From: Hormiphora californensis | Lineage: Eukaryota; Animalia; Ctenophora | Direction: 5' to 3' | Assembly (NCBI GenBank): GCA_020137815.1 | Contig: CM035356.1 | Span: forward strand, 2,046,001-2,110,000 | Length of the DNA stretch: 64,000 nucleotides | In this document: piece after piece, positions 1-62,548 of the stretch | Position numbering within the stretch: position 1 is the first letter of the stretch | Layout of the letters: every line of letters begins with the position of its first letter | Program-made: the position numbers and the translations under genes | Notes under the pieces: generated by a model | Told to the model about the DNA's origin: nothing | Database searches by the model: none | The model's input: only the letters and a program-made list of their open reading frames with translations

Positions 1-61
<61 letters not shown>

Positions 62-8046: not shown

Positions 8047-8281
8047 TAATTTTATCTTTCTTTATGAATTTATTGCGTCTGAATGCAACAGTGGTGCTTG
8101 TAGGTATGTAGTAGGAAAGTGCTAACCGTAGTGCCTGAGGGTTTCATTGTTAATGATAGCATTGAAGTGTAATTGTAATGTTTCATCTTGTAATCTCACA
8201 AAGTTATCATTCATTTTAACCTTTCTGTAACCTATTTCTTGTCCAAGTCCAGACTAATAAACCATTTTTCTCCCACAAGGT

Positions 8282-12427: not shown

Positions 12428-12496
<69 letters not shown>

Positions 12497-12695
12497 ATCT
12501 ATCTATCTGTCACTCCGTCATTACTCCACCCTTTCCTTCCAGGTGGATCTACAGCGTCTGTTCAGTGCTCCCTGGGAAAAACCCCACATGTTATACGGTA
12601 GGCTACTGGACTGGATTCGATATTTGATTGTCTGGCACCCATGCCATTCATCATGGTTGCCCAAGGTATTCAATGATCATCTTGGTCTAAAGTGA
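10463..12695 (+). CDS. RNF121: RING finger protein 121-like membrane E3 ligase (exons 10463-10536, 10753-10894, 11032-11186, 11354-11442, 11604-11743, 11891-12021, 12332-12406, 12543-12695)
   Basis: GHEVMHAEML.., FYGGYFGVLGRD, ICAVCG..LSCGH/FHDYCIRGWC..KKQTCPYC, PWEKPHMLYGRLLDWIRYL; a few apparent 1-nt insertions in the last two exons. Confidence 0.9.
12022..12331 (+). other. U12-type (minor spliceosome) GT-AG intron
   Basis: 5' site GTATCCTTT; branch TTCCTTAAC at 12310-12318, 13 nt before the 3' splice junction. Confidence 0.9.
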
Positions 12696-13344
12696 GGGAT
12701 TTAGAGATTTGGTGTGAGGCGATGTTTGTGAGCAGCTCTTTTGTGGACTTTCAGGGGAGGGAGGGGCAAAAGAGATGCGAATCAGACATGAGAAGAGGCG
12801 ATGTTTTCCGCACTGGCTGTGTGAAAGATCTGTGATAACTTGTTGAGTAAGGGGTTACTCAACAATTAATAGCGACAGTTATCTCAAGTGTAACTTCTTA
12901 GAAATAGGAGGAGGGGTGGGAAGTCATATATTGTAATAAGGGTATTTTGCGAGGTGAGCATGTGTGCTATATCGTGTCTGTGTGTACATTTATCTGTAGG
13001 TATCTCTTTGTGTGTGTATACGAATGTTAAACTGAGTTTAAAATTTATTTCACCTTACGAGAGCCGCCGAGTTTCAGTTCTCAAGAGTTGGATTTACAAG
13101 AAAATAAGTTCCATAATTCATCATTTTGTCAGTAAAATGTCACCCCATAGAAAAATAGAAAAGTCTTTGTAAGAATCAGTTTATTAGCACATTGTCTCCT
13201 TTCATCTCTTTTCATCTTCATGAAGTCCATAATATCCTGATCTTTATTGCCAGATCGAAACATAGCACATTGCATCCTCAGACTTTAGACAGAATTCTTA
13301 TTACTCAGACACTAGACAGAATCCTCAAACACTAAACCGAGTCC

Positions 13345-16300: not shown

Positions 16301-18903
16301 TAAAAGCCCTGAAAAACAGCAAATCTGTCTAAAAATGCAATACGAATAAAATGTCACCTCCAGTGCACCAACGTAGCCCCCTGTGGACAGAATTTGTTTG
16401 AAATTGTCAGAAATTGTCTAAAAGTATGGTTTTTAGAGGGTGTTTTCAAGGCAAATATAAGCACTTTTACTTAGGCTATAGCTTCTAAACGAAATAAGTT
16501 AGACACTTCCCGTTTTTTGCATCACGTTGGCATTTGCCTGAGCTTCATTTTCATGTATGCAGATGTATATTTTTCGAAATCTTATCTGGATTAGGGTTTG
16601 TTGAAGTAGGGGTATTTCCAAAATCCACTGTACCAGTTTTTCAGCTGTAACTCCTCAACGCCTGCATGAAATGGAATGCCGTAAAAACCAGTTTGTTCGC
16701 CTTGAGAAGACGCAAATTTTAGTGTGTAATAAATCTTCTTTTGGTTTACATCTGCAGCCACAGGAGCCAAATACATATTTGCAGAGTGGCCATCTTTGAT
16801 GGGCCACAGTAAAGAGAGCTTTTGACCAAATCACACAAACCCGGGACCAATTTGTAGCAAATCGATTGTATTTTATTAGTCTAGAAGCACAAGATCATAT
16901 CTTGTAAGGAAATATTTTTTAAATCTCTAGAAAGCGTAAAAAGTCGAAAATCGCTGAAAAATGACAGTTTTTGCCGTTTTACGCAAAAACCGCTACGTTT
17001 TCGATTTTAGTTTTATGTTTTTCGGATTCCTCGGTCAAAAATACGTAACCTAGGTCCGGTCTCCAAAAAACTTATTCTAGCCGAGGTTTCACCTCCTTAA
17101 GGGACACCGTGGAGACCAATCAGAACGCCAGATTGACAACACGTGACACCGAAATATATATGTATTTGAAATACCCAAATTAAAGGGAGGGTACGTTGGC
17201 CTTCTTTTCACCCAGAAGTTTAATTTCAATCACTCTGATATTTTGACACAATGTCTACATGGGTACTCATTCGAGGAATCCGAAGTTTCAAATCATAAAA
17301 GTTGAAAGTTCATTAATGAACTCAATTTTTCGTTTTTCGGGTTTTTTGAGGTTTTCTCTTGATTAAATTCGATTTTATTATTTTAAAAACCGCCATACAA
17401 TAGAATAAGTATCAACAAATGGCAATCTGCATTTTTATTAAAATTGAATCAAGTTTAGTGGGTGAAATAAGTTATTTAAAGATGATATTTTTTACCAAAC
17501 ATCGATTTTGACCTGTTTTGACCAGAAATCGGTAAATTCAGGCGCTAAAAATCTGTACGGCCACTACACTTGATCAATTTTGATGTTAGCCGGAATTTAA
17601 GCTCTCTATCTTAAAATTCATTTTTCCGACTGGAATGAATCCTGAATGAACTTGAAAACAGGAATGCTTTTTGGAACCGGAATTTCACAGTCGCCTACGG
17701 GTATCGATTTCCTTTTAAACGCGACTAATTTGAGCTCAATTGGACCACCACAAGAGACACAGTGTCTAGTTATCTAACCCTAGGTTTGGTCATCTGACAC
17801 CTAATGAGACGATAGCGTCATTACTAAGTGCCAATAAGCAGATGTAACGGTCGAGTATCACGTATCACGTCTGCTAATGAGGATGGTGTACCGATACAGC
17901 ATCCGTTAAAATGTAAGCTCTCTTGCTAACACGTCATAATTTGATGGGGATCACATGACTTACCCTAGGTTTAGAAAACGGATCACTGTGATTCTTGTGG
18001 TGATCCAATTAAGCTCAAACTGGTCCCATTCGAAAGGAAATCGATAGCCAAACAAATTTGTGAAACTTTGGTACCGAAATATGGTCCCATATTGGTGTTC
18101 ATTCAATGTTCATTCGGTCGAAAAAAATGAACTTTTATCCAGAGGGCTGAAACTTCGGATTCCTCGAATGAGTAACCATGCAGACATTGTGTCAAAATAT
18201 CTGAGTGATTGAAATTAAACTTCTGGGTGAAAAGAAGGCCAACGTACCCTCCCTTTAATTTGGGCCACGCGGTACATATGTATTTCAGAAACCGTAATGG
18301 TCAAATACCGTATTATTCAGACACCGTATTCCCACTACAAGCAGCACTGTTACCTGTTCTTTCCTCCGTTTCGCCTTCTTTCTCTCCCTGGCTAGTTCCC
18401 TAATCAGCATCTCTAGTTCTGCTTCCTTCTCATCAAACTCCTCAACTAGCTCATCGTCTGATTCCTCTCCCCTCAGCATCTTGGTCAGTTTCTGAAGAGG
18501 GAACATTGTAAAAACAAACATAAAGTTGGGGTTGAGCTTAGTGGTTCGGGAAGAGGACTAAAACTTTCTTTTTTTTTGGAAACGCAAGTCTCAAAAAGTA
18601 AAAAAATTAGAAGGATCATGATATGTACCTCATAGGCCTCCCCAATATCCAGAAACTTTCTCGTTGCTTCTTCATCCCCTGGATTTTTGTCCGGGTGAAA
18701 CTTTAGGGCAAGCTTCTTATAGGACTTCTTGATGGCAGCCTCATCAGCCCCTGCCTGGAGAAAATTAGGATTTCAAATTCTTCAAAATACCGAAACCCCA
18801 TCATTTCGAAAGACGAGGTAAAACAATATTTGCTGATCACAGCATTTGTCTCTGCTATTACCTGAATCTCTAGCTGCTCGTAATATACATCATAGTTCTT
18901 CAT
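13345..18903 (-). CDS. J-domain (DnaJ/Hsp40 class C) protein with coiled-coil and Ser-rich tail (exons 18903-18862, 18754-18629, 18491-18354, 14463-13345; ~474 aa)
   Basis: [50 protein letters not shown]; phase-0 junction joins RRKEQ to [11 protein letters not shown] of the 364-aa ORF. Confidence 0.8.
15020..15391. mobile_element. Mutator-like foldback MITE
   Basis: TIR GGTAGGCGGTAAATGTTAACCAGATCTG; 9-bp TSD TCCATATCC. Confidence 0.88.
15625..17111. mobile_element. 1.49-kb foldback element, Chapaev-like ends
   Basis: ~685-bp near-perfect inverted arms; CAC..GTG termini; 4-bp TSD GAGA. Confidence 0.88.
17184..18254. mobile_element. Foldback element flanked by TTAA (Kolobok-like)
   Basis: TIR AGGGAGGGTACGTTGGCC; TTAA on both sides, but inverted symmetry extends 6 bp beyond TTAA so the ends are uncertain. 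Confidence 0.75.
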
Positions 18904-24300: not shown

Positions 24301-27300
24301 TAAATTAGGATGAAGGGTGGGTATTATAACATGTGGAGCTATGATGATGATGGCATGGTGATGTAACCGTGGAAATTAGGAAGTTTGTAATTGACTGGGA
24401 GTGTGATTGGGATCTACTCAATTAGAGAACACGTGAGATGGCCTGGGAACTAAGAAGAACTGAACGATAGATTGATCTCAGGTATCAGAGTATATGAAGT
24501 GAAATATAATTCCACATGCGATCAGAAGTGGGTAAGAATCAGAAGTGGATAAGAATTACAGAAAGCCTTGGATGGTACCGTAATCTGGGGTAACTTTGTT
24601 TTGCAGGGTAACTTTGGACACTTTCAAAATTTGGCTTTAGTCCAAAATTACCAACAGATAACGACAGATTTGGCATAATTTTTGGGTGTACAAGTAATCG
24701 ACCCACAAATGTCTAACTAACGGTACAAATATTTTTTTAAATTCTATGCTAATTAGCTCCTAATTAGGGGCAAACATAATTGATGTCAAAATCGCTAAAA
24801 ATGTTCAAATCAAAATGGGTACCATAGATTTGACCGGGCTAATGACCGAATCAAGTTTGCTCCATAGAGTGGAAGGGTTTCGATCAAATAATTCGGGGCA
24901 CCATTTTTCAAACCCGATCAATTACTTTAATTGAGACTAATAGGGGTGGCTAATGTTACCCCACCATATTTTGAATTTTGGGGTAACTTTGGACGGGGTG
25001 CCAAAGTTACCCCACACTACAGGTATTGAACTTTTGATGTCTGTAGAGTTGCCTTAGACCCTCTCTGAATTGTTTAGGGCCATATAACCAAGATTTAGCC
25101 CACTCCACGCCCATTTCCATCTATCTATTCGATAGGTTAGTGAAAAAACTAGGATTTGGACTATTTTATGGAGCTAAATCACAGAAATCCGGCCTGAAAC
25201 CCATCAAACTTCAATAATTTGGGGTTCCTCATCCATCCTGTAGCTTGTTAGATGGTATTGGATCTCTAGGAGAGTGTTCTTGTAGACAATCTATGCAGGA
25301 GCACAGGTACAGCCAAAATAGGTACTGGCTAAATAAAGGAGTTTTGAAAACTCCTTTATTTAGCCAGTACCCATAAGTAGACCACTTCCTGTCTATCCAA
25401 TTCAGCAAAAAGAACTAACACACTCGCCTAGAGGGCCAATACCATCTACCAAACTACAGGATGGATGAGGGACCCCAAATTACTGAAGTTTGATGGGTTT
25501 CAGGCCGGGTGTGGCAACCTCTAAATCAAGTCCGATTGAGCTGAAATTTTATTTGGTGGCTAGTTTCATCATTCCTCACACCCAAAAAAGTTGAGTCGAC
25601 ATCATTATTGGCCCATTTAAACCCCATTTAAACATTTTAGGTTCATTTATTTATCATTGCAAAATGTTTGGATTTATGTTTGTTCCAATATTACTATCGT
25701 GGGGTAACTTTGGACGGGTGTCCAAAGTTACCCCACCCTCATTCCAAAGTTACCCCATGCCCTAAAACCCCACTTACACTAAAATACACGTTAATTAATG
25801 TAATTAAATGAGATGGGACCAAAAATTTCACTAGTTATATCTGGTGTACTAGGTCTGGAACGGGATTATTTGGTTCAAAAATTTTCGAGTGTGGTTCTGG
25901 CAAGGAGTTATTTTAGGAGAATGCTAAAAAGTGGTACAAAGTTACCCCAACTTACGGTACCAGTGTGGAGATTACCCGGGGGTCAGGGGAGGGGGTCTAC
26001 ACAGATATTATATTCATTATTAGAGACATGCTCTGTTTGTGTCTCCTACAACATGCTGCCTGCACTGTACTATTTTAGGGCAGTATACAAGGGTAATAAT
26101 AGCACCTGTCACACTTCCGATACTATTCGAACACACACAACATATTGTGCTGCTGCATGCAGGACTGTCCCTATGTCTCTCCTGTCTGGCATCTGGTATC
26201 TGGTATATTTCTAATACTACTTCTTATTCTCCCCCCTGTCTGGTATGTTCTAGTAAGTGTCTGTCTGTCTGTCAGTCTGTCCGTGTGTCACAACACACAC
26301 GGAAAGCGTGCAAGTTAATTAGCATATGCACACACACAAGACATGTGTAATTCTGTTTAGAAGGCACACAGTGAACTGTGAAGTGTCACGGTCGAGTGAG
26401 CTGGCACTGCTGCAGTACTGTTGAATATATGTTACACACGTGTTCTCATGATTCCACGTCACTTCCGTCATGTACATGTGTTTCTATTAGACACACGTGA
26501 GATATTATATAGGTCGACAAAGTCATTATATTTTAATTACAAATGTCGCTCATTATACCCAGAATATCATCTTATTGTACCATATTAATTATTATGTAAC
26601 ATTTTAGTCACAAACTGGTCATAACCTGGTCATAACCTTGTACCAAATAATCTGAATCTTTTATGTTTTCCAGCGTATTATTTCATTCATTACGTGACTC
26701 AAACACATGATACACACCGTACATCTGGTATATTACAAGTCACAGTTCACACTCATCAGCTTACTCCTATACTTTCTCATACATCTCTCTCTTTCACTCG
26801 TTCTCTCTCCCTCTTTCTCCCTCTCTCTCTCTATCTCATTGCCTCGCGAAGACGTTCGAAGCTTCACACGCAGCTTTGTGAAGAAAATTAAGTACATAAT
26901 TCCCACATGAGCATATGTCGTTCTCATTGGGCATATGGTACCCATGAGAAATAAAATTGCTGGTGTGAAATTGTGAGATTCTTCGAAGTCATACAGGACA
27001 TCTCCCGACTCCCGCGTCGTAGGAAAATTTGTGCAGTAGTTGCCAACTTATTAATTTGTACGATGGGGGGGGGGGTGTCACGTACAAGATGGAATCTAAT
27101 TGAAGTTGACTATTTTAATGTCACGAACAGGCTCTATATTTTGCAAGGGCTGTTTAAGGGTACACCTCGGCAAAATTTTTGTCGAGTGCCCGCTTAGCTC
27201 TCCATATGGGGTTGTAGGGCATACCAAGCCGACCTCAAGTATGCAATTTTAGCCCTTAACTCGAATTCATATTTTTGCTACAGCCCCTCAAAGTTTGACC

Positions 27301-28937
27301 CTAAAAACCGGTTTTTAAGGTCCCTAAATTTTATTTTTAGGGCTAAACATGTTCAAATCTTAAAATACGATTTCTGAAAAAACGGTTAGACTTAGAGCAA
27401 AATGTCTAAGAGACGACCCCCCAAAAATCGGACCCGCTGAATCGATTTAGCACGAATTTAGATCGCTAGGACCTACCACTTTTGAGATATAGCCATTTTA
27501 AGTTTTCCTAAAATATGTGCTTTACAAAAAGAAACCTGTAGGCCACATTTCAAATTCGGACCTCCTGAAAATTTGTGGCTACTTTGACAATTGTTAGGAG
27601 CACCAAATATCCAATTTTTAGCCTTAACAGTCCATAGGAACATGTCCAAATATGGCCTCAAAGTCAAAAAAAGTAAAATAGTCTCAGACAAAAAATTGAG
27701 CTCCGTTTCAAAAAACTTTTGTTTGAGCTATACACCTTGGTATCCTCTATGAATCCCTAAATTTTCAGCTTTCTAGCCCTAAAAATAAAATTTAGGGACC
27801 TTAAAAACCGGTTTTTAGGGTCAAACTTTGAGGGGCTGTAGCAAAAATATGAATTCGAGTTAAGGGCTAAAATTGCATACTTGAGGTCGGCTTGGTATGC
27901 CCTACAACCCCATATGGAGAGCTAAGCGGGCACTCGACAAAAATTTTGCCGAGGTGTACCCTTAATCGGATTCATATCTCATTAAAATAACCGGTCGTTG
28001 TGGCGGACCGTGTGTTTTCCAGTGGTAATGAGATTGAGGGGCCAGTCATGGAAATACTCCCTCTCTCTCACACAGTACACACACACACACACACTCTCTT
28101 AACCTACTTCAAAATGTTTTCCTCCATAAACCGCTGCATTTCCAGAATGTATTTCTCGCTCGTCAGGAAGTCCTGGATGTGGTTGATGTACTGGATATCT
28201 GGGGAAAGAGAGTTAAACTTGGTAAATTGGTCAGAATTCTTGGAGTAGCACTTGGTAAATTGGTCAGAATAATATACGAGTTCTTGGAGACATGAAGGTT
28301 TCATTTCTCTCGCAAGTAATCTAGCGTACATCTTTTCTTTCTAAGGTTCTCAGAATGTAAACTGTCAACACATGTATCACATGGTACTACACTACTACTG
28401 TAGTAACACACGTGACACACTCTCAGAGGGGTGTGGCATCTCAGAACTTTCTGGTTCTCGTGATACAGGTGGGTATTATTCCCCTAGTGGTCCAGGTTTG
28501 CCCTCAACCATTGGGGGTACCGCAAAGGAGCTAGTACTTTCTGGATGCTACTACTAGTTTCATAATTTAGGTTGGTACTATAATTATAACAGGAGTGGCC
28601 GGTAGGGTGTAGGTATGATCTGACTATCTGTCAGGGGTGTGTCTAGAAAGGAGTGAGTTGTCTACGTGTATCCTACTCAACATCCAGCTTGAATACAAGT
28701 AGATTGCAAAGTTTTCTAGGGCATGACGACAATAATTATCTCGTCATTTTCTAAAAATTAGACGTTTTCTAGTAGGGCACTTCTCAGAAGAATAGAGAAA
28801 TGAGGAAGGTAGAGGAATGATAGATCCTCCAATTATACATACCGTATTTAGAAGACTGGAAGTGTTCAATGCTATCAATCAGTTTCTGGGCCTGGAAATA
28901 TGATCATGAGTTTCTTGTTTCTGTGCCTGTCTGTCTT

Positions 28938-28970
<33 letters not shown>

Positions 28971-31900
28971 TCTGCTTGACCTGCCGTTTCAGTCAACTCT
29001 TGGAAAAGTCAAGACATACATAATTGTTCAGTCTTTCCTGCGAGGTATTCTTACGAACTCTTTCTGAATGTCTGTAAGCAACATTATATGCTTTCTAGAA
29101 AGAAAGACTAGAGAGAGGGAGGGAGTAAGAGAGGAAAAGACAGAAAGATAGTGAGAAATAGTGAGAGAAATACAGACACAAACTGACGGGTTAGCTGACT
29201 ACAAAGTTAGTGGCAGATACAGCTCTAGTTACAGTAGCTCAAATTGACCAAAGTTAGAGCTTACCTTTTCCTCCTTGTGCGTCATTGGCAGCTTGGGGTG
29301 CGAGTAAGTTCCTGAAATCTGCTGTAGATACACTCCTGTAACAGAGAAATATATTTTATTGGGAGAGCTGTCTGCTTAATTGTAACAGAGGAATAATGGG
29401 GGGGGGTACTGTCTGCTTGAGTGAGACAAGCAGTTGTCTACAATCCTAGATGAGAGGGATTGCGGGGGATTGATTCACAATCATGTGAAAAATTGGAAAA
29501 TTGTACGTGACGCTAATGTTATGACGTGGAAAGAGGAAAGACAAAAGAGGAGGAAAGATAATAAAAAACCGTTCCGATTCAGTCCATTAATTTAGGCAGT
29601 TGTTTCCCACAACATGCAGCCTTCTTTTATCTTGTGTCTGATAAGACAATAATAACGTTAGAACAAGCTCTTCCGGTCTGCTGTTGCAGATAAACTCATT
29701 TTAACGCTCTCAGCTCCAACCCCAGATAACACGTACTAACACAAATATACATGCACCACTGCAAATTCTGCTCAGTACTATTACACAATAACAATCATGT
29801 GATGTAGCTGTAAAACAGCTATCTGTGTTGTGATCTACTAAACCCCTCTCAATCACACCCCTCCTCTCTTTGCCAAACCCTTGAGGGTCATTAGCACTAC
29901 CCTATAAACAGGTGCTAAGATAACCTAATCAGGTATGTGTGTTTATGAGACAGGGGTCTAAAATAGGTCGCCCCGTACACACCGAAAATATTAGGTTGTC
30001 CCAGAAAGAATGTCGTGTCCCGTTTTCTCGAAGTTGGCCCATCGATTTCGATTTAAAACTTTTCTAGCTCGTTCATTTAACCCTTGACTCTATGAAACAA
30101 GTGTCTATTTTGAAAAAATTGATTTTCGACGCACCCTGGCGAACCCGGAAACAAGCGAGCTAAAATTTCCGCTGAACGAGAAATATGCGCATGTTGAAAA
30201 CACTGCTGTACTTTTTCCTGTGAGTGTCTGTAAGATATTACACTACCCCAAGCTTGTTTATTGGACAATTCTCTATCGTTTGAGTGGTGGATGAAGACAC
30301 AGGTCAGAATTGTTGCTGAGCTATGGAGCTCTAAAAATTTTTGGTCAAAATCTGAAATTTCCACTTCCGGGCCACTTCTGAGTTCATTCGATTGGTGTAT
30401 TGACATTCTTTTTGCAGCTTTGAATAGTCCCGACTAAGCTTTTAGTCATAGCGATGTTGGCGATTTGATTTGGTAATGTTTGAAGATGAAATTTGGAAGT
30501 TTTTGAAAGTAGCCTAAAAACAGGTCAAAAACAGGGGTTAAATTTTTGATTTTTTCGCTTTTGCACAGTATATTAGCTTTGTCTGACGCTTCCACAGGTT
30601 GCGTCGAGACTAAAATCGCATAGGTTCCTTAACTTTGGACAATTTGCTATCGTTTGGTGCCATTTGGAGTTCTAAAAGCTCAAAGGGCATTATTTCAGAG
30701 ACGTTTTAAGAATTGGAAAACCTCCGTTCAGCGGCACCTCGACTTTGGGTTTCAAAATACCGAATTACAAACGGATGAAATGAGCATTTGAAATTTTGGA
30801 CACGTTCCTGAGTTAGGAATCGCCATATTGACAAGATAGAACTGGTTAGAAGTCTCTAACCCATGTATTTCTCCTAAAAATCGGTACACGACATTCTTTC
30901 TGGGACAACCTAATATACTTAGTGCAGCATTGTTGCAAAGAGAGGTTATACTGCAAATAACACGTCGTGTGTTCTGTACATGTTCGTTTGAGTAATAACA
31001 ACGGAACCGGGCTGGTGCGATGGGAAAATATATACAGGGCTATATGTGGTCTTGCTAAACATACAGCTTCCTGTTAGGACCAGTTTAGGTTCTTGCTCAG
31101 TAACCATGACACGAACATGACGTGTGAATTGGGCGTGAATTTGAAGGGGGTTTGAAGCGAGTTTTTAGCTGCTAACAACTGTAACAGCTAGAACAGTAAA
31201 ACCATATTATTCAAGGAAACACGGTGACTTTTGGGGCTGTGGCATTGCCACCACGCACGAACAAATCTGGTTAAAAAGACAATTTATGGACGACAGCAAA
31301 TCACAATATCCCTGTTACTAACCAAGATGGGGTATTGCTGGAGGGAGGGTGTTATCCAGTATCTCCTTGAGCTGTTTCCAGTTCCCAGCTGATAGATCAA
31401 CATACGATTTAAACAGATTCTTCTCCTTTTTACTCACCAACTAAAGAAGGACAGGGATGTATTAATTACGTTTACCAAAGGGACCGGAAGAGGAAATCAT
31501 GATAGAAAAACCTTACTCTGGTACTATTGTAGAATTAAAAATATTTGTCATCTTTAGGACATCTTTACCTCCCAAGTGTTGTGAAGACGAAAGACAGCGT
31601 TGATATTGATGCCCATGATCACTGCCACAAGAGAATGGTAGTTCCGTAGTTCTTCCAGACACTGAGAGAGAGAGATGTAGATATAGAAGTGGGGAGAGGG
31701 ATGTATTAGAAATTATAAACCTGGGAAATATTGATAGAGATATTGACAAACCTTTGACATCCTAAGGAAGTATGAGATCTTGTCAGCACGAAGTTTGGGT
31801 GTCAGTTCCTTGAGAATTTCCCCTGCGACCCAGTAGGAAACCTGTGAGAAAGTTCCAATTAATTATCGTAACTAATAATTTCATAGTTTCAGATGCAATT

Positions 31901-33292: not shown

Positions 33293-34113
33293 TAGTTAGG
33301 AACACTATTGGTGCGCGGTCGTGCCCACGGAAGGAGTGCTTGGATCATCTTGAAACCGGTTTTAAGTTAACTAATGCATATCCAAAAGTGTCTGTAGCTA
33401 TTTGGGTGATGTTCTGACAATCCAATCACGAGTTATGACGAAAAAACAGTCAAAAAAGACGTTTTAAAGTGCCAAAAGGGAGGATCTGAACACAGCCCTT
33501 ATATGAAGGGTTGGGGCTATGAAACTTCTTGAGTGGACAGAGAATCGTCCAAATTTGCAGTGCCAACTTTGGAATAGTTTCTATCTTTTGTAGTTATCTA
33601 ATTAGAGCCGTTCAAACATGTGAGACGATCTGCAAAACAGGGTGATTTGGTACTGTTTCCGCCCCATATTGCTTGCTCTCACCGCTTGTATGCTTTAATC
33701 TGCTCTCTAATTGGGTAAATCTCGTCAAGTGATCACTTCACAAGCAAAAATACCTAGTATTAGAGGCCCCTGCAGCATCGTCTCACATGTTTAAACGGCT
33801 CTAATTAGATAACTACAAAAGATAGAAACTATTCCAAAGTTGGCACTGCAAATTTGAACGATTCTCTGTCCACTCAAGAAGTTTCATAGCCCCAACCCTT
33901 CATATAAGGGCTGTGTTCAGATCCTCCTTTTTGTCACTTCAAAACGTCTTTTTTGACCGTTTTTTCGTCATAACTCGTGATTGGATTGTCAGAACATCAC
34001 CCAAATAGCTACAGACACTTTTGGATATGCATTAGTTAACTTAAAACCGGTTTCAAGATGATCCAAGCACTCCTTCCGTGGGCACGACCGCGCACCAATA
34101 GTGTTCCTAACTA
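33293..34113. mobile_element. Second copy of the 820-bp foldback, opposite loop orientation, TSD TGA
   Basis: Near-identical to 6155-6974. Confidence 0.92.
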
Positions 34114-37600: not shown

Positions 37601-40600
37601 TTTTTTGGGTAAAAGTTCATGAATTTCATGAATTTCTGAACTATTAAACTTACTTAGTGAGCTCTCCGAATCGTCACACTTCAGGACAGATACTCTGATT
37701 TCTTCAAAGGTATAATTCTTCAGATTGGCGTTGAGTAGGATGCCCAGGTTTTGTGACATCTTAGGATCGATCACCTTCAACTCCTTCACCTTCTTCTTGG
37801 GTAGTGCGATGGCTGCTGCAGATTCTGAGAGGTATGTGGTGTTACAAATCATACCCCAAACAAAGTTACAAAAAAGGAAAGACTTTGAAATTACCTTTGA
37901 CTTGTTTTTGTGCGAATTGGCTGTTAATCTGTTTGAACAAATCGGTGTTCTCCAACTCCACCTCCCTCGTTTTAGCCCAGAAAGTTTGTTTGTTAATGGA
38001 CCTCATGGGGATCTGGGACCAGTTCAATTTCTTAACCGTTACCTGGGATAAATATGGGGATTATACTTAGATCATTCTAAATAGAGGTATAACTCAGATA
38101 AATCGTGTGATTTTATTCCATATTATAAAGATTAAAAGACGCCTGTGTGTTGATGTAAATGTAGTGCTATCACGTATAGATTTTGAGGGAGAGAGATGGG
38201 ACTCTAGAACTTAAGAAGATCTTTATAAATAGCGCTATTTATATTCACTATTATATATTTCTATTGTTCTCTCTATTTCTCTTTCCATCTCCTGTATTCC
38301 TCTCCAGGTCATGTGTCTCTCACTTTTCCGCTATGCGGGGGTACAAAAGCAAGTTTACACACAGTACAACTAGCTGTATCTTGAGATATATTAGCTCTTT
38401 TCCTTTGGATCGCTTTGCTTTGAGTATCTCCTTAAATCACCAAAATATCTGCACATTAATTATCTCAGTTCTGGTGGCCACGTTGATACGTCATGTTGAA
38501 AAACTGGCGATGCTACGGGATAGTCTTCCTCCTCATGATCCCCACTATACCCCTGGCCATCTACAAATACACACTGGTAGTGAACCTGTATGCTATTGCA
38601 GACAGTCAGGCGGTTCAGTTCCTTAACATCGCATATCTTATCATGACTATCAGGTATATGACGTCACTTTATAGGGAGTTTTTAGGGTTTAGGTTGTTCT
38701 TGAAAAAGTACCTAACTGTTGCCTTATTCGACCTTCTCTCTAGAACAAAATATCTCAACGTGTACGGGGGTTCCACAGTGGCCTTTTTCATGGGAGTAGG
38801 TGGTCATTAAGGAAAATATTTTTTTGAACCTATCTGGTAGCTTTTTTGACGTAGAATCAAATGCACCCCTCACTCATGCCTTGATTTTTTGAGGAAAGTG
38901 GTGTTTTTCCAAAAAGAAGGGTAATTGAAAAATTTTCGAAAAAATTTTTATGAGCTTATCTGGTAGCTTTTTTGACGTAGAATCAAATGCACCCCTCACT
39001 CATGCCTTGATTTTTTGAGGAAAGTGGTGTTTTTTCAAAAAGAAGGGTAATTGAAAAATTTTCGAAAAATTTTTTATGAACTTATCTGGTAGCTTTTTTG
39101 ACGTAGAATCAAATGCACCCCTCACTCATGCCTTGATTTTTTGAGGAAAGTGGTGTTTTTTCAGTTTTTAGTCTTTTTAGGCTTCTTGGACAACCATACT
39201 TAAAATTTAGCTGGAGCAGGTGAAATGGGGATCCATAACAATTTAAATGTGGTTGATAGTAAGAAATCGAACAAATTTATATCTCATTCAAAATTTTTTT
39301 TTCAAACTTCATCCAGGGCGTTTTTATGGTCAAAAAACGAAGAAAACTTGATTTTTCGACCATAATATACAAAAGTACGCACTTGAAACCTTTTTTATCT
39401 GAAAGGCCAGACAATTTCCTATCTTTTGGTCTATAGGACATCGATGAGGTTCGATGAGGAGGCTGGGGAGAAAGCGTTAAAGAAGGCGTGTTTGTTTACT
39501 TTAAAAAAACGATCTTTCAAAAGTTTGAGACCTAACTAAACACGTTTTCCGACCTTATTTTACACGTAGAATCGATTGCCGATAGAATTGGGACTCTAAT
39601 ATTGAAGGATAACGGTGAAAATCACATGTTGTTAGACCATGAATTTTGTTAAGCTTGGATTATCCGATGGGTAGACACTAGACATGTTCCTGCAAAAAGG
39701 AATTATACATTTTAACGCCTTGTAATAGTCGACCCATTCTCGCTCCTCGGAGCCCTCTAATTCACCGGCAGGTGCAGGAGCCAATCAGCAGCAGTGAGGA
39801 GAACGAAGAAGATCAGTAGATGCCCACCATTTCATTATAATCTATTATTTGCTTTTTATCTCATCATCTTGACCACTTTTATGCAAAAAAGGACCACACA
39901 AAGACGAAAAAACGTGTTTTCACCGTTATCCTTCAATATTAGAGTCCTAATTCTATCGGCAATCGATTCTACGTGTAAAATAAGGTCGGAAAACGTGTTT
40001 AGTTGGGTCTCAAACTTTTGAAAGATCGTTTTTTTAAAGTAAACAAACATGCCTTCTTTAACGCTTTCTCCCCAGCCTCCTCATCGAACCTCATCGATGT
40101 CCTATAGACCAAAAGATAGGAAATTGTCTGGCCTTTCAGATAAAAAAGGTTTCAAGTGCGTACTATTGTATATTATGGTCTAAAAATCAAGTTTTCTTCG
40201 TTTTTTGACCATAAAAACGCCCTGGATGAAGTTTGAAAAAAAAATTTTGAATGAGATATAAATTTGTTCGATTTCTTACTATCAACCACATTTAAATTGT
40301 TATGGATCCCCATTTCACCTGCTCCAGCTAAATTTTAAGTATGGTTGTCCAAGAAGCCTAAAAAGACTAAAAACTGAAAAAACACCACTTTCCTCAAAAA
40401 ATCAAGGCATGAGTGAGGGGTGCATTTGATTCTACGTCAAAAAAGCTACCAGATAAGTTCATAAAAAAATTTTCGAAAATTTTTCAATTACCCTTCTTTT
40501 TGAAAAAACACCACTTTCCTCAAAAAATCAAGGCATGAGTGAGGGGTGCATTTGATTCTACGTCAAAAAAGCTACCAGATAAGCTCATAAAAAATTTTTC

Positions 40601-43600
40601 GAAAATTTTTCAATTACCCTTCTTTTTGGAAAAACACCACTTTCCTCAAAAAATCAAGGCATGAGTGAGGGGTGCATTTGATTCTACGTCAAAAAAGCTA
40701 CCAGATAGGTGCAAAAGAAAATTTTCGTCAAATTCTTAGTGACCACCAAAAGGCCACTGTGGGTTCTAGTCTCTAGAACCAACAGTTTCGATTTAAAGAG
40801 CTGTCCTTAGCTTTCTAGCCGGTAGCCTGACAATTCCCAGTTTCTAACTCCATCCTCTCAGTGGTATGCCGGCGTCCCTCTGCTACGAGAGAGCTATGGA
40901 GATACGGCCCAGTTACCTTGTTCCCACAGTAGCCGGTATCCAGGTAAAAAGAGAGGGACATTCTGCTCGGGTGTAACTTGGAGAAATTCAAAATTCATAT
41001 TTCACCAGAGTTTTTTCAAAGTGGTTACCAAACCTCTCAATTTCTGTCTGGGTGTCTCTCTCCCCAACATCTCCCACTTTCTACCAGGGTCTATCAGCCC
41101 TGCTGTACGGTTTAATAATGTCCCGTGAGGGTGTATTTCATCCTACAACAAAACTCTTCCTGGGTATCATCACCGGTACACCCTGCTACATTATGTACTA
41201 CTTTACACGTGAGTAGTTACCATGGTTACCATGGTTACTGCAGTTTAGCTGTTACCATGGTTATTGGTTTAGCTGTTAGTTACCATTGTTACTTGTTTAG
41301 CTGTTAGTTACCATGGTTACTTTTTAGCTGTACCATGGTTACTGATTTAACTTTTGTTTAGCTTTCATGTGTGGGTTTGTAGCCTATTACCCCTGTCTCG
41401 AGGTATAAGGGGAGGGATAGGTGGCAAATGCGTGGGTGGAGATTCTAACAATGTTTCCACAACCACTTCCCTCCCAGGTAACTACATAGATCGGCACCTC
41501 ACGATAGAGATATCACGTGTCCACAAGATAGAGCTGGGGACCCTCAACTCAGCCATGACTATGACCAGCTTTGTGTTGTTGGCCCTCTTTTCAATGCTGA
41601 CTGGGAAACTTTTTGCGGCATTCTCCCTCCGAGATGCGACACTACTTGCAGGGGGAATCTGCGGGGCTACCTGCATCCTAACTGCAGTGTTATTAACTGT
41701 TGCTCTCCGGCCCTTCGCAGCCATACCAGAAAATAAGAAGCGGGGTGAGAGGAACACATTCGCACAGTTTGGTAACCAATGGCAACGCTTCAAATCAATC
41801 CCCATCCTCAAGATAATAGTGGCTGTGGTAGTAGGACGGTGTGTGCTAAAGGGCAGTTATTACGATTACATCCTGTTAGAATGTGGACTAACACAGGAGC
41901 AACTCAGTTGGAATATTGCTGCGTTTTATGTCATGTTGGCTATCGGTTCAATCATCAACATACACAAGAAGAAGCTAGGTTTCACAGACCAGTATATCCC
42001 TATTTATGCCCATTTCAAGGTCTGGCAATTAGCCAGCGCTGTGTATCTCTCTGTCGCCTACTACTTTGTGATATTCCTACCGTGGTACCAGGGTGGGGAA
42101 CTATTGCCTACTGCTGCTACTGCACTAATGGAGACGCTCCCTAACTCTACTCAAAGTGAGATCATTCCAACAGAGATGGTGACGGAAGCAGCTGGATCAG
42201 GGGGTATAGCCCTGTGGCTAATAATATTTATCTTCTCAACTCTCCTCCTCGCAGCATTTGCAGAGTTCGAGGTACTTGTTATGAACGAATTCTACCAGAT
42301 AAACATCCCTAAGGAGGATCGAGGTGCGATTGTGGGGGTGGACGAGGTTCTAACCCTGATCCTTCTCTCTGCTCAAAGTGGCCTGGGTCTGTTCCTGGAG
42401 GAACAATGGCTGATGACGGAGATGTTCATTCTCCATCTGACTGTGGTGACGGCAGGTTTGGTACTGAGTGTGTGGTACTTGATTGTGGATGATAAGAGAG
42501 TGACGAGTAATAAACTCCACCGTGGAGAGGAATCCCCATTAATGACTATTGACTGAAGTAGTGTAGTGGTGAATATACCGGGCTAATTGTAATTATGATA
42601 GTCACCGTAACAATTGATCATGATTTGCGTTCCGTGTTTAACTTGTTTTTAGACCGGATTCTGAACCATATTCCAAAGTGTGTATTTGTGTGTATTTGAT
42701 TGAGATTCTAAATTGTGGATTTGATAATTCCTATTTCTTACCGGTAACGTGTATGTTTTCTTCTTCGTAACACCCTCAGGAAGAGCGTTCCTGCCCGCAG
42801 CTGCACCCGGGGCACGGGGAGGTCCAGGGGCGCCCGGTGCTCGTGGTGGACCTGGTGCTCGGGGTGCGCCTGGTGCTCTAGGTGCTCCTGGGGCGGGAGG
42901 GGCACCAGGTGCAGGCGGGGCTCCTGGGGCTCGGGGTGCACCCGGCGCAGGGGGCGCTCGAGGGGCACCGGGTGCTGGTGGCGCTCGTGGGGCGCCAGGG
43001 GCTGGTGGTGCACCTGAAGGGATTGATTGTTAGGGAAGAGAAGGAAGACATGGTTCTATAATACCACGAAACATCACTATTAAATGCCCATTCTAAACCA
43101 CCCAGTATTACGTGGTGCACCAGGAACTGGCGGGGCTGGTGGCGCTCCGGGAACACGGGGAGCAGGAGGAGCTGGAGGGGCACCGGGGACCGCTGAAATA
43201 AAACAAGTTCATCTTTAGTTTGTTGTCATGTTGGTTCCAGTCGAGTCGTCATTCGTCCAGTCAGTCAAACAGTCAGGTCAGCATTCAGCAAGTCGAGGAT
43301 GGTCCAGGAGAGTCAAATTATGTGATGTTGTCAGGCTGACAAGTTAGTCCAGGGGGTCTAACAAGTAGAGACGAGGACCCAGCTAGTCGAGGGCGTCCAA
43401 GTTTCCCCCAACAACCCATGATCTCTCTTTTTTAGCACAAAAAGCAGTTGTCATTCCCTTGTCCACAGTCTAGTCACTAATAATTGTATCACATGACTAA
43501 CTAACAATATTACTCACGGGGTGCAGGTGGAGCTCGAGGGGCACCAGGAACGGGTGGGGCAGGGGGTGCACCGGGGACTGGGGCTCCTGATCGGGGTCCT

Positions 43601-46600
43601 GCCGCTGCTGCTGCAACTGCACGGTCTTTCTGAAATTAGGAAATAGAAGCTGACGTGAACCGTTCAAACAGGACAAATTGGAATGTTCAATGTACCAATA
43701 TCAAATATAAGTGTCCCTTCTAAGCACTCAAAACTCTGAAATAAAATGATCCTAAAATTATTACCTCAGCCAGAATCGCCTTCTTCTCTTCCTCAAACTT
43801 GGCCATTTTTGCCTGGTACTCTACAAAGGCTTTAGAATACTTTCCCTCAGCCTCCTCCAGTTCCTTGGTTCGATTTGCAAGCTCCTGCTCCAACCCTACC
43901 TTGGCCTTTTCCAGTTCTTTCAACCGCTGTTCTTCAACCAATGTTTCTAATAGGAGAAGACATGTGTCAAAGTTGTTTATTTGGGGTTAGAATGATGGTC
44001 TTGGATGAGTTCTTATTCAAGCCCCGTCCTATTCTAATTTCTAATTTCGATAAATTATTGTCGTTTTAGCACTTACCGATGACATTTTCAATGTTACAAT
44101 CCTCCAGTCTTTTAACCTTGAAATCAGGGTCTACCCCTGACTTTTGGAGGACTATCTGGCTGATCACATCGTCAATTAGCCGGAAATACTGTGGCCTGGT
44201 GGAGGGGGATTGTATTTAAATTATCTCGGTAAAATATGTCTGTACAGAAATATAGTACAGAAATCTAGTACAGAAATCTAGTATAGAAACACGAGAGGGG
44301 AAAGGTATAAATTCGAGACCCGATAAATTGAAAGTATACTTGTTGGTTGTATTCCTGCCTAATTTTACTCACTTGGCTTCAGGGTCATCCCTAATTAGAA
44401 CGAAATGTTGAAGGATAGAAAGAAGTGATCCCTCGACCTCGGTATGTTTCGCCATGTTGAATATGATCTGGAACAGCTCAAATGGATCCTCAAACTCGCT
44501 CTGAATGTCTCCAAACTTTTGCTGAGGGGAAAAGATGTCAGTGGATCTTAGTGGATCAAAACTGAGAGGGAGATTGGAGCATGAAATGCATGTTTCAGTG
44601 GAAATTCCGGCGGGGGAGTGACAGTATGTCTTTGAGAAATGAGAAGGATAGGGGAGAGACAGTGAGAGGGAGTAGCTCTTACCGTTAATTCGTGATGATC
44701 ATCCTCCTGATTGTTGTCTAGCACTGTAATCTGAACAAACAGCTCGTCATCCTCTACACTCCTATAAAACACAAGTTGTCAACGGGGGGACACTCCTATA
44801 AAACACAAGTTGTCAGGGGGGGGGGACACTCCTATAAAACACAAGTTGTCAGGGGGGGGGGGGACATTCCTATAAAACACAAGTTGTCAGGGGGGGGGGG
44901 GGACATTCCTATAAAACACAAGTTTTCAAGGCTATTCATTCAATCAATTATCAATAATAGTTTAGACGCTCTGCGTTGCGGTTGAAGGGCCGCCTAATTT
45001 AAGATACACAATACCTCAAGTTAGGATCTGAGTCTGACCTGTTGAGATCTCTGAGGCTGGGTATCACGTGACGCAGTCCACAGTTCATTAACTCATTCCG
45101 GATATGCATTCGGAATTCAAGCTCACTCGGAAACGTCGTTAGAGAATTTGCAAGCTGTGATAGAGATTAAATTAAACTAAATTGAATCACACCAGAAATA
45201 TTAGGTCATTCGGTAAATATCTGGACAGGTATGATTGTGAGAGAACGGAGCCAGATAGAGCCAAGCGACCTGTTCCAGCGTCTTCCTTGGACATTTTTAG
45301 GTTGGACTAGGGTGGTGGGAACCTTCGCCTGCTGGCAGTATTGCCTCACGAGCAATATGTTTCAATGCTACTCTAGCTGCCGCTTTATGCAAGAAAAAAC
45401 TGTGGCACTACGGATGACTGAATATGTCATGGCATTTTCTCTATTGTGGACAGATGATCGGTTTGACCAGTGTTCCTAGATCACTTTTTAAGCCTGAATA
45501 TGATGCAACCATAATTGAAGCGTTTAGATTCCATCTTCATCCTTAAAAATTGGATTTTTGCCAAAATTGCGCCTTGCGCACTTCATGGCCGTTTTTGTAC
45601 GTTCTAAACGTCTAAATGACTTGAATCCAACGTTAAATGTTAGCTCATACAATTTTCTAGGTCCTATGTTAGTTTTATTACGATCGGTCAATGGATACTT
45701 GGCTCATGGCGGCTTTTTTCAACATTTGTAAAAAAATTAAAATCCAGCTTTACCAAATCTAGCGAAAATCGCTTCCCCATGCTAGAAATTTTATCCAAAA
45801 ATTTCAGGAAGGTTTATGGAGTATCTCAAGGCATTTAATAAGCAATATATAGGGTTAAAAACTTTCCGAATTATCCGGAAGTAGGTCATATTGGTCCAAA
45901 ATTGAGCATAAAGCGGCAGCTAGAGTAGCATTGAAACATATTGCTCGTGAGGCAATACTGCCAGCAGGCGAAGGTTCCCACCATCCTAGTCCAACCTAAA
46001 AATGTCCAAGGAAGACGCTGGAACAGGTCGCTTGGCTCTATCTGGCTCCGTTCTCTCACAAACATACCTGTCCAGATATTTACCGAATGACCTAATAAGA
46101 AATTCCCCCATGATCACACCAGAAATAAGAAATTCCCCCATGATCCATATTATATCTTCGTCATTCCCCCAAGATTTTATACCGTTAAAATTCCGATGGT
46201 TAATTGTTGAGGGGCATGTTCTGCTTTTAGGTTATCCACTAAAACCTGAAACCTTGGCCTCCCTGTTTGCTCTCCATAACTCGACAGAGCCTCTAAAACT
46301 GCCTGATGCCTGGGGGATGGGGGTGATAATCAAATCACAAGTTCCCAACATCCCTTTATCTGTCGTTGAAATCACCAAATACAAATGCCCCCAATCATCA
46401 TGAACTATCAGTTAACTCCAAACCATCCCAATTTGTTATCCACTTCACCCCTATAATTGTACTACCAGACAGATCAACTCACCCTTCATCGCTGACATAA
46501 CTAACAGCGGCGAGGATCCGCAACACTTCCGTCATCATGACGTGGTTCCGGGGATCAAGACACTTTGTCAGCAGCAACATACCCTCCTTGTTCTTCATCA

Positions 46601-55998: not shown

Positions 55999-58900
55999 AC
56001 ATGGCTGCCAGAATTACAGCATCACCAGGACCATTGACCAAAGCATCGCCAGAACGACCAATGGAAACCCGGAACAGTCACACAGGAACAGATGTCAGCA
56101 TAGCACCAGGAATCGCCAATGTCTCCGATCGTTTCTCTTCGAACCTCGTCAGTTCCACGATAACAAACCTGCCTGATATTCCCACAATACTTGGACTCCT
56201 CTCTCTGTTCATGATTGGTCCCTTCGGGGTCGCCAGATGTGGGGTACCCGGTTAACCACCACTGATCGCTAATCAGTAGTCCCGCCGGGGTTCCAGTTGA
56301 ACGGGGGGAGAATATACACTCGGTGGGGTGATCTTAGGCAGTGGGTGGGTGATAGGTTTGTTCAGATTGCGGGTTCGTCACCCAGGATTTCTCAAAACAC
56401 AGGTTCACCGGGTTCGTAACTGTAGTCTTGGGGGGTAATCACTCACACAATCTTCAATCTTCACTGGTCACAACAACTTTGGTGCACATGCACGCAAAGT
56501 AAACGCTCACATCGACATCAGATACGGTCAAGAACACGGGCAAGTTCTCCCTCAGCAAGGATGGTAGGTGCTCTCGGGCAATAAATACTCACTGACTCAC
56601 TCTTGGCTTTAAATATCCCGACAAACAACAAGTCACGTGATATCCGTACCAGAAACAATTCGGAACAACACCAAAGTTTTGTACCACTTCTCCGACTCGA
56701 ACTGTCGACACCGTCCGAGTAAAAGAGGCGATACTATCGGACAGACCCGTCTGACTGACTTTCACTATGGCTCTCTCTCTACTCAACTACCTATTCTCAC
56801 TCTAAGCTATCTGACAGTCTTAGTAAGCTCATTGTTCACACCTCACTTCACCAGAGCTCTCGCACATGGCTGGGAAAACGTGACAACTCACCACTAAAAC
56901 TAGGGAAAGGGATACTGGGGTAACAGGGGTATCTCTCATATCCCACACAGTCCTCTCCACAAGATCCTCGATTATCCTCGAATAAGCAGCCAAAGCATCC
57001 TCAGCAGATTTAGACTCCATCACCGCACTCCAATCCACATCTCCAAAAGCTCGCCTGAACAGTTCCAGTCAACTGCCCTAAAATCCTGTATGTGTCAATC
57101 TGTTCACGGTTTTTGTATTCACTTCTAGTAGTCTCGATTAACAGATCAGCTAAAACCATAAAGTGATCCGAAGTTGTCCCTTCTGGAAATATTGTCACTG
57201 ATTGAACTTTGGAAACTCTGTCTTTTTGGCACAGCAAGAGATCAAGAGTACCTCCTCGAACATGGGTGGGTTGCATTGGAACTAATTGATCAAACCCCAG
57301 AGAGTCAAGCAGTGCAAGTAATTTCTTGGCATAGAAGTTCTGGGTGTCGTGGACTTGGAAGTTAAAATCACCCATCAGAACGGGATATCCAGTTTTGCAG
57401 ACTAGCTCGGACAGATAGTCATTAAACTCATCCAGGAACTGTGCTTCCGTATATCTTGCCTTGCCCGTGTAAGGAGGCCTATAGATATTGCACAACACTT
57501 GTAAGATCCTGCCCATTACCGATAAGGGCTTCCTGGACCTGAATGATTTAAACTTAGTCTTTACTGGTGTGTACTTGATCTTTACGCCATCCCTGTACAA
57601 GATCCCAATTCCTCCTCCCAGAGCGTTCGGCCCTAGGAGAGGAGAAGATGTTCCAACTATAATCTCTGATCTCCTGAAGTTTTGCAGTGTCACTTTGCTT
57701 CAGATAAGTCTCCTGTACCAAGCAGATGTCGCATCCTTTTTCCTCCAAGTGGTTAATTACACCTGACGTTTTATTCAATTGAGGAACTTAGTGAGCCAAT
57801 CTTCCAAGTCGTTTTCCTCTCAGGTCCTCCCATGCCCTCGTCTGATACAGGTTTTTTTCCTCCTTAGTCACGCCACTTGTGCTCTCCATGAGTCTAGCTT
57901 TAGCATTGATGTAGAATGGACACATACTGCTTGAGGCTGGGTGACCTTAGCATGACGCTTGTCCTCTTTGCTTCCTCCATGATCACAGTTGACACATTTC
58001 ATTCTGCTCACTACGTTATCCTTCTTGGCTTGGCAACCCCTAGTATCATGATCCCCTGTCAGAAGGCACAAACAGCAGATTTATCCTTGTTTGGACAGTA
58101 GATGGACCCTGCTACATGACCAAAGCGCTGACAGTGGAAACACTGAGTGACATAAAACCGTTCCTAACAAAGTGCTGTCGGAGCTTCAAAAAGAGCTTGT
58201 CCTTCCGGTCAGCAATCACCTCCTCACCTCTGGGGTTACCTGAATCACAGCATATCTCCCTGTCTTGTTAATATGACCACCTTCACAACATGACCCTCCT
58301 CAACAAGCCTCTTCACTGACTCATTCTTATCACTGACAATCTCGGAGAGAAGACTATCCTTCTCTAACAGGTCCTGATCAAGGTCATTACCATTATCCGG
58401 GGATCCTTCTTCTTCTCTTTCTCCACTGCAGAAGACACATCAAGGAATGGAGAGAGAACCCCTTCGCTTGTTCCATCTGATCATCCGTCTCAAAACATAT
58501 TAGTCCGTCTCTTGTTACGGAAAGATCTAACACCGGAATATTCTCAAACGCTGTTTCCACTTTTGTTCGTACAACTTCGGTCCATTTCTTCTCACACACA
58601 TTGGTCCATCTTCCCCTTTGTCCTTGATTGTCAGGTACCTCTTTATCGGAGTCACAGGAGCCACTGCTCCAGTATTTGAGTCAGGAGAGTCACACTGTCA
58701 GGGATGGTTCCTCGATCAGCTGCAAGAATCTTGCTAACCTTGGGAGCTACTAGATCCGGAAGTGAACCTAAGAACCTCTTTCGCTTTTCCAACGTCTCCT
58801 GTAAATCTCCTGCCGGTGATGAAGATACAGATTCAGATGAGTGGGTAGATATGCGTCTGTGTCCGTAACAAAGCATCAGTTGTTTGATAACTGTCCATAA

Positions 58901-62180: not shown

Positions 62181-62548
62181 CCCTGACTCTGTTAACGTGT
62201 AGCGCGCGCAGCGTAAATTAAAATATCGCACGCGCATGAGTTGGAGGGTGAACATAACAGTTGAATAAATTTTTAACGTCGACTGAAATAATAAAACAGC
62301 TCAAGTAAAAAATAGACGCGCGGTCAATTTCAGCAGATTAAACTTGCATATTCTGCGCGGTACGTATTACGGTGTGCAATTGCATCGCGTCGGGCACAAA
62401 TTTTCGGTGGGCCGTGAAAATAAAAAACTCAAGGAGAGCTCTTTTTTAAAAGTTTTTTCTGAAGTGGACGGCGGACCGTAGGTCGTAAGAGTTTGGGAGA
62501 TTGCCGACTAAGGATCGAAGTAGCATCAACTGGTAGGTGATAGTGAGG

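Follow-up and report, generated by a model that had tools for sequence, protein, structure and literature searches.

A 1,988-bp element in the window (the whole 64,000-nucleotide stretch of DNA that was analysed) is, with a probability of roughly 0.8, a non-autonomous subgroup I Transib mobilized in trans by the transposase of a ctenophore Transib. Most likely it represents a new family of the Transib type that has already been described in ctenophores with equal lopsidedness. The novelty that the sequence-only reading of this DNA had implied was overstated, since ends that differ by one helical turn have been in print for Transib since Kapitonov and Jurka 2005 (PMC1131882) and, ctenophores included, in Tao 2022. 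What is new here is that 810-bp arms are 98.8% identical while the tips remain unequal. The parts of the element and its surroundings, read from the letters unless another basis is given, are as follows.

38774-40761: element proper, 1,988 bp, with CACAGTG at both tips
38769..38773, forward strand: left copy of the 5-bp target-site duplication GGTTC; the empty site in run X5 has one copy
38774..38780, forward strand: left heptamer CACAGTG, the predicted cleavage end
38781..38787, forward strand: the 7 nt after the heptamer, common to both ends
38788..38798, forward strand: 11-nt spacer segment present only in the long (left) end; ungapped in X2, X5 and X7 and partly in X6
38799..38811, forward strand: the 13-nt block conserved further in at the long end, also from the shuffle test
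38812..39621, forward strand: left foldback arm, 810 nt
38812-39189: about 2.8 tandem 126-bp units that open the left arm, with a unit junction that resembles the long tip without its CAC
39622..39916, no strand: unique centre, 295 nt, in which no transposase remnant or RNA family was detected
39917..40726, reverse strand: right arm of the foldback, 810 nt, which differs from the left arm by 10 mismatches
40727..40734, reverse strand: 8 nt that the short end has in addition and that preserve its register with the 126-bp unit
40735..40747, reverse strand: the 13-nt block conserved further in at the short end, in agreement with its left counterpart at 12/13 positions; its letters recur in loose ends in X5
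40748..40761, reverse strand: right heptamer plus the 7 shared nt of the short end, with the reverse complement of the heptamer at 40755-40761
40762..40766, forward strand: right copy of the 5-bp target-site duplication GGTTC
38061..42648, reverse strand, borders approximate: formin gene intron that hosts the element, between the FH1-like and FH2-start ORFs
42649-43029: proline-rich FH1-like ORF of the formin gene, flanking the intron
37866-38060: FH2-start ORF of the formin gene, flanking the intron; FH2 (Pfam) was found on the neighbouring ORF

The two CACAGTG tips and the 5-bp GGTTC duplication, both already proposed, can be read directly in the DNA; the span given with them, 38769..40766, includes the duplication, and so the element itself is shorter by that much. 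By analogy, the long (left) end would be the 5' end and the short (right) end the 3' end. The first 14 nt are identical between the two ends. The earlier description of the rest of the arms as nearly identical agrees with the 10 mismatches in 810 nt, but it overlooked the 8 extra nt that the short end carries past the block. The likeness between the 126-bp unit junction and the long tip was reached by 16 of 2000 shuffles; for the short tip and the upstream part of the unit, 318 and 535 of 2000 shuffles did as well, which is no more than chance. A Pfam search with nine of the element's short ORFs (a subset of those at least 40 aa long) returned no families, and thus no transposase, and an Rfam search of the element returned no matches. 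The element is a gene-less foldback and most likely non-autonomous.

The two ends differ in how far the second block lies from the heptamer. The block GGTGGTCAYTAAG begins 18 nt past the heptamer on the left and 7 nt past it on the right, and so the 11-bp offset of the shared block that was first proposed stands, with the left end being the longer one. TCAYTAAG begins 23 nt (left) and 12 nt (right) past the heptamer. The label '12/23' says too much: the 11-nt difference is set by the sequence, but the figures 12 and 23 hinge on the starting point of the count, because it begins inside the 13-nt block. At the arms beyond the block, which lie 38 nt (left) and 35 nt (right) from the tips, the offset has shrunk to 3 bp because of the 8 extra nt at the right end, and therefore 11 bp holds for the heptamer-block distance only. 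The observation that there is no canonical nonamer was confirmed, with 4/9 identity in both the 12 and 23 slots. Nonamer positions 5-6 read TA at both ends with spacers of 12/23 and AA with spacers of 13/24, which are within a tolerance of +/-1, and there is no A-rich nonamer.

Several of these features were compared with chance. The 5-bp flank match has a p of about 0.001, and the 12/13 block match was reached in 0 of 2000 shuffles. A search of the window for CAC...GTG ends no more than 8 kb apart that share a 5-bp direct flank and agree at 11 or more of their 14 terminal bases yields only the pair described here. CACAGTG occurs 16 times in the window versus 6 expected, which is weak evidence alone. 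The tips of the element match at 27 of 60 nt without gaps, compared with 59-60 of 60 in each of six further elements of the window with long inverted repeats that were tested. The combination of near-identical arms and unequal tips hints at a one-long-one-short rule, short of proof.

Contigs from four of 15 sequencing runs (X2, X5, X6 and X7, of which X2 is possibly the source sample) were aligned to the left end of the element only. One contig from one sample provides the evidence for an empty site: X5 record 10 follows 38609-38773 with 0 differences and then continues with the letters of 40767-40796, leaving a single GGTTC. This empty allele in another sample supports recent movement, as the sequence-only reading had supposed. 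Contig pieces bridging flank and element were absent among the matches listed, from which a filter drops some records. Depth jumps at the edge of the element in all four runs (0 to 1252, 366 to 4312, 0 to 9129 and 3 to 16528, figures that are not copy numbers), and this indicates that a repeat family is present in both organisms, A and B. The zero cover of the bin 38756-38772 in X2 and X6 proves nothing. In X2, X5 and X6, a third haplotype parts from the window at position 38746.

The long tip is ungapped in a diverged contig, X5 record 12, with 19 differences over 38775-38908, and in organism B (X7 record 30, 10 differences); there are no indels at 38774-38818 among the matches listed. The short tip was found in two X5 contigs (agreement 1), its variants being visible only as loose ends of left-end alignments. 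A loose-end print in X6 that might have been a new short-tip variant was rejected as a majority mix of ordinary short-tip and internal-unit contigs. The suggestion to see if the offset is fixed in other copies could be followed part of the way: both tip types recur and the long one does so ungapped, but short contigs cannot reveal how the ends are paired in each copy. Both kinds of end turn up again in other samples, and the long kind in a second organism too, so damage to this one copy does not explain the asymmetry.

The assignment to a family rests on the ends. As printed in Kapitonov and Jurka 2005 (PMC1131882), 5-bp duplications together with terminal inverted repeats (TIRs) that start with CAC (CACAATG- or CACAGTG-like) mark Transib; the element has both, and the name 'Transib-like' was well chosen. 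It also has the asymmetric bipartite TIRs of subgroup I. Tao et al. 2022 (PMC9435367) report asymmetric TIRs in all subgroup I Transibs, illustrate the group with ctenophore elements and characterize its transposase by an alpha11-alpha12 region and a CTT1 tail. Chapaev (CMC), the second group with CAC...GTG ends, leaves duplications of 3-4 bp and does not fit the 5-bp duplication. The target site GGTTC stands after a G-run, although this is one site only and the Transib criterion is a GC-rich target preference.

The host fits as well. The formin exons that flank the element match Pleurobrachia bachei (EukProt P006134) at 91-100% identity in six of seven tblastn pieces, the seventh of which spans introns, and so the 'early-branching animal' of the sequence-only reading is a ctenophore. 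An MFS-like ORF had no homologue among 7,998 candidates. Scans of the JGI metagenomes with the end pattern and then with the arm word gave 0 and 0 matches. A scan of GTDB gave 11 matches, where 13 were expected by chance, and one of IMG/VR gave two; these 13 loci were rejected as chance because none has a second end, a block or arm similarity.

Judging from the family, the transposase would bind each heptamer plus the second block further in, cut at the CAC through a nick and a hairpin and paste the element with a 5-bp stagger. The heptamer-block distances differ by one helical turn (11 bp here and 10 bp in three published ctenophore elements), and this would leave both blocks facing the same side of the helix once the ends are paired in a complex. 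The anatomy suggests that the long arms formed by copying the subterminal DNA of one end onto the opposite side and that the 126-bp units may be old end duplicates that lack the CAC. A long-short pair may transpose better than two equal ends do, which would explain why the tips have remained unequal; this is the least secure step, to which we give somewhat less than even odds. Copying that began inside the tips, or that halted at heterology, also leaves the tips unequal without selection. More tentatively still, and with the odds rather against it, a RAG2-free ctenophore Transib may enforce a strict one-long-one-short rule, with an 11-bp difference as in the 12/23 rule, that this foldback family displays.

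The alternative that survives best, with close to an even chance, keeps the Transib identity and regards the asymmetry as inherited baggage: the transposase would need only the terminal ~14 bp, and arm copying would have stopped before the tips. It concerns function alone and is compatible with the family assignment. Martin 2020 (PMC7204232) proposes, as printed, that invertebrate RAG-like enzymes depend on the outermost 15-17 bp and respond rather little to asymmetry, and in Carmona 2016, RAG1 without RAG2 no longer needs asymmetric substrates and HzTransib alone transposed 12/12 RSS, with 12/23 requiring RAG2. The arm mismatches are also denser beside the tip (3 in 20 nt versus 7 in the remaining 790 nt), as one would expect where a copied tract ends. 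However, the second block has been retained at both ends across an otherwise dissimilar spacer, the one-turn offset is repeated in three published ctenophore families of differing sequence and ProtoRAG favours its asymmetric pair.

As indicated above, the element is tied to no transposase, and this would allow another superfamily with 5-bp duplications and CAC ends to move it. We consider this very unlikely, as the complete heptamer, the spacing between heptamer and block and the TTA(A/G)G with which the block ends match those of Transibs printed, with their transposase genes, for the genus of the host.

A RAG-like partner (RAG1L + RAG2L) in place of a single-gene Transib is highly improbable. 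RAGL elements do share CAC ends, 5-bp duplications and a 9-11-bp asymmetry; the AanRAGL spacing is 4/13 (Tao et al. 2022, PMC9435367), the asymmetry given for PflRAGL-A is 10 bp (Martin 2023, bioRxiv 10.1101/2023.08.20.553239) and the coral FcoRAGL ends printed in the Tao 2022 supplement have an offset of 11 by hand count. However, the protostome RAGL consensus printed in Martin 2020 (PMC7204232) has AAA at positions 8-10, where the element has GCC, its ends resemble those of ctenophore Transibs, and the main text of Tao 2022 gives ctenophores six Transib-like proteins and names no ctenophore RAGL. Finally, an 11-bp difference that is an indel private to one copy, which the closeness of two indels (11 and 8 nt) might suggest, is largely refuted by the presence of both tip types in X5 with its empty allele at the site, by the ungapped long tip in a second organism and by a mixed print from organism B, attributable to one contig in its left half only, in which the heptamer lies 27 nt before the arm anchor versus 38 (11 more) in the long tip.

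A non-autonomous Transib with unequal tips, the reading that we prefer, bears on the question of whether the asymmetric pairing of ends was already a trait of the Transib transposase or required RAG2. Carmona 2016 links the 12/23 rule to RAG2, and statements in Tao 2022 (PMC9435367) and Martin 2023 (10.1101/2023.08.20.553239) place asymmetric ends in the ancestor by inference. If the one-long-one-short rule were true, the V(D)J pairing rule would predate RAG2, and Pleurobrachia would offer a living, still-mobile system for tests of pairing rules. A polymorphic multi-copy family whose two ends are alike except at the tips is a handy substrate, and a census of its copies would be inexpensive. 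In the literature outside subscription journals and Repbase, our searches turned up neither a functional study of subgroup I Transibs nor a paper that joins Transib, nonautonomous and foldback.

The closest known elements are the ctenophore subgroup I Transibs of Tao 2022 (PMC9435367), of which PbaTransib_0868 and PbaTransib_8175 (Pleurobrachia bachei) and MleTransib_3931, _2823 and _6236 (Mnemiopsis leidyi) were compared as printed. Hand counts from the supplement, accurate to ~1 nt, give 23/13 nt from the heptamer to TATTAGG in PbaTransib_0868 and MleTransib_3931 and 24/14 nt to CATTAAG in MleTransib_2823; the element described here has 24/13 nt to CAYTAAG. The offset is 11 in the element versus 10 in these three two-ended Transibs by hand count. 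All four start with CACAGTG, and a 5-bp duplication is common to the element and PbaTransib_0868 (CTGTC). The layout is also common: past the heptamer come a few shared bases, then, at one of the ends, an insert of one turn, and then the shared block, which in the printed ctenophore Transibs is 10-14 nt long and ends in TTAGG or TTAAG, by hand count at 27-28 or 37-38 nt from the tip. In contrast, the sequence past the heptamer differs from that of the printed elements, and the element has no transposase. Because of these differing ends, the printed Pleurobrachia elements are probably not its partner. The element has 810-bp foldback arms with 126-bp units, whereas the ends of PbaTransib_0868, as printed, diverge directly past the block.

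Transib5, Transib2_AG and TransibN1-N3_AG, as printed in PMC1131882, resemble the element in their 5-bp duplication, CAC heptamer, short- and long-spacer ends and non-autonomous members; they have an A-rich nonamer (consensus AAAAAAATC), whereas the second block of the element is not A-rich. ProtoRAG (Tao 2020, PMC8289069) and RAGL-A (Martin 2023; Martin 2020, PMC7204232) are described with bipartite asymmetric ends and 5-bp duplications as well, and the second element of ProtoRAG has, in the account of Tao 2020, little likeness to a nonamer, as is the case here. However, both have an A-rich stretch right past the heptamer, which the element lacks (GCC at positions 8-10), and both carry a RAG2-like gene, whereas this copy has no genes. 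The V(D)J 12RSS and 23RSS share the identical heptamer, the 11-bp spacer difference and, if the spacers are taken as 13/24, AA at nonamer positions 5-6; their ACAAAAACC nonamer is matched at only 4/9 positions at 12 and 23. The ends described here are transposon ends that face inward round non-coding DNA, whereas the RSS of V(D)J recombination are joining signals.

The foldback Transib-like element listed first below is real, its bounds are well set and its movement is recent. We consider it most likely to be a non-autonomous subgroup I Transib, with a probability of about 0.8.

Mobile elements and other features of the window
38774-40761, foldback Transib-like element, 1,988 bp, GGTTC on either side
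15625-17111, foldback element, 1,487 bp, identical ends starting CACGGTG, 684-bp arms, 4-bp GAGA flank duplication
6155-6974 and 33293-34113, TAG...CTA element in two copies, 820 bp, 3-bp duplications TAG and TGA
27154-27965, 45199-46097, 17174-18264 and 29988-30916, four further MITE-like inverted-repeat elements
5611-9968, plus strand, C2H2 zinc-finger gene, tandem duplicate (ORF translations)
57010-57699, minus strand, endonuclease (Exo_endo_phos) fragment (Pfam)
62537-63841, plus strand, single ORF of 434 aa, galectin domain at the C-terminus (Pfam PF00337)

The left and right ends of the element both start with CACAGTGGCCTTTT. The heptamer CACAGTG occurs 16 times in the window and alone carries little weight; the element is the sole CAC...GTG pair there that combines matching ends with a direct flank of 5 bp. 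Each tip holds a 13-nt block, identical at 12 of 13 positions between the two ends, a match equalled in none of 2000 shuffles. The left (long) end has 11 additional nt before the block and the right (short) end has 8 additional nt after it. The sequence-only reading had placed TCAYTAAG 23 and 12 nt from the heptamer, and these distances are correct, but the block itself starts 18 nt (left) and 7 nt (right) after the heptamer and only the difference of 11 is set by the sequence. The arms, which start 38 nt (left) and 35 nt (right) from the tip, are each 810 nt long and mismatch at 10 positions, near-identical as claimed; each contains about 2.8 units of 126 bp, and a 295-nt unique centre lies between them.

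Contigs from four of the fifteen sequencing runs listed (X2, X5, X6 and X7; three samples, two organisms, with X2 possibly the source sample) were compared with the left end of the element. One X5 contig (record 10) equals 38609-38773 with no differences and continues with letters equal to 40767-40796. This is an empty site carrying a single GGTTC. This one contig settles where the element begins and ends, confirms the 5-bp duplication and makes the insertion polymorphic, which supports the claimed recent movement. Depth, which is not a copy number, climbs steeply at 38773 in all four runs, organism B included, and this points to a repeat family. Diverged contigs (X5 record 12, 19 differences; X7 record 30, 10 differences) align to the long tip with no gap, and in the four runs no indels are listed at 38774-38818 and no substitutions at 38774-38808 among the rows listed. 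Two X5 contigs have the short tip as a loose end (agreement 1), and a mixed X6 print shows it in register; in a mixed X7 print the heptamer lies 27 nt ahead of the arm anchor, 11 fewer than in the long tip. Both tips recur in other samples, in contigs too short to tell how the ends are paired, and none of the pieces listed for the left end bridges flank and element. Metagenome, GTDB and viral collections were also scanned, with no matches above chance. At 38746, 28 nt before the insertion site, a haplotype in X2, X5 and X6 departs from the window and is an additional structural allele close to the element.

Neither Pfam (nine short ORFs) nor Rfam has a match to the element. It is intronic to a formin gene on the minus strand, with a proline-rich ORF on one side and the first FH2 ORF on the other. 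A downstream formin exon matches one protein at 99% identity, EukProt Pleurobrachia bachei P006134; six of seven pieces of P006134 are 91-100% identical to the window by tblastn, and the seventh spans introns. These matches place the host, a ctenophore, in Pleurobrachia or close to that genus. The same intron holds, antisense, an intronless membrane-protein ORF of 401 aa (41351-42556, plus strand), with a weak MFS_1 match (E 0.012) and no homologue among 7,998 candidates.

Foldback elements are abundant in the window. The one at 15625-17111 fits a Chapaev-type non-autonomous foldback. The 820-bp element, which we take to be Academ-like, is inserted in one copy of the tandem zinc-finger gene, and the paralogous gene near 8870 has the empty site. 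The element at 27154-27965 starts TTAAGGG and is presumably Kolobok-like, and the Exo_endo_phos fragment is likely a non-LTR retrotransposon remnant.

From its family, we predict that a transposase acting in trans would pair the two ends of the Transib-like element, cut at CAC by nick and hairpin (PMC4840297) and insert with a 5-bp stagger; the block would be a putative distal binding site that lies a helical turn farther from the tip in the long end. The anatomy suggests that the arms became identical through copying and that the 126-bp units may be end duplicates since decayed, because the junction between units can be aligned with the long tip, CAC having been lost (16 of 2000 shuffles, the window being picked after inspection); its alignment to the short tip is not significant. 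Six other elements of the window with long inverted repeats were tested, and in every one the two tips agree at 59-60 of 60 nt, so the unequal tips are special to the Transib-like element. They may have been kept by selection for a long-short pair, which agrees with the preference of ProtoRAG for its asymmetric pair (PMC8289069). A copied tract halting at heterology explains unequal tips too, and Martin 2020 (PMC7204232) and Carmona 2016 (PMC4840297) offer grounds for expecting that asymmetry matters little when RAG2 is absent. A real long-short pairing preference is a tentative proposal, somewhat short of even odds, and a strict pairing rule is slightly less likely still.

Asymmetric RSS-like Transib ends in comb jellies, Pleurobrachia included, are already published. 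What is new is one more ctenophore Transib family, an offset of 11 bp instead of 10 bp, recent movement proven by an empty site (one contig) and a foldback build whose tips are unequal. A literature search, with most subscription journals and Repbase outside its scope, found no paper on a foldback Transib and none in which a subgroup I element was tested for function. Canonical V(D)J RSS nonamers are absent from both ends, as claimed, and AA at nonamer positions 5-6 is found only if the spacers are counted as 13/24. Chapaev has CAC ends like the element but duplications of 3-4 bp (PMC4079192) rather than 5 bp. In the consensus of protostome RAGL ends, positions 8-10 are AAA (PMC7204232), which the element lacks. 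Transibs are defined by CAC heptamers and 5-bp duplications, and five families have RSS12/RSS23-like ends (Kapitonov and Jurka 2005, PMC1131882). Tao et al. 2022 (PMC9435367) report six Transib-like proteins in ctenophores and asymmetric TIRs in all subgroup I Transibs. Hand-counted on loci printed in the supplement, from the heptamer to the last seven block bases, the distances are 23/13 in PbaTransib_0868 and MleTransib_3931 and 24/14 in MleTransib_2823, the long end being 5' in all three; in Pba8175 and Mle6236 the printed passages compared mark the 3' end alone, of the short type. The element measures 24/13 on the same scale. It therefore represents a different family from these printed ctenophore Transibs, with the same tip layout and an unlike post-heptamer sequence.
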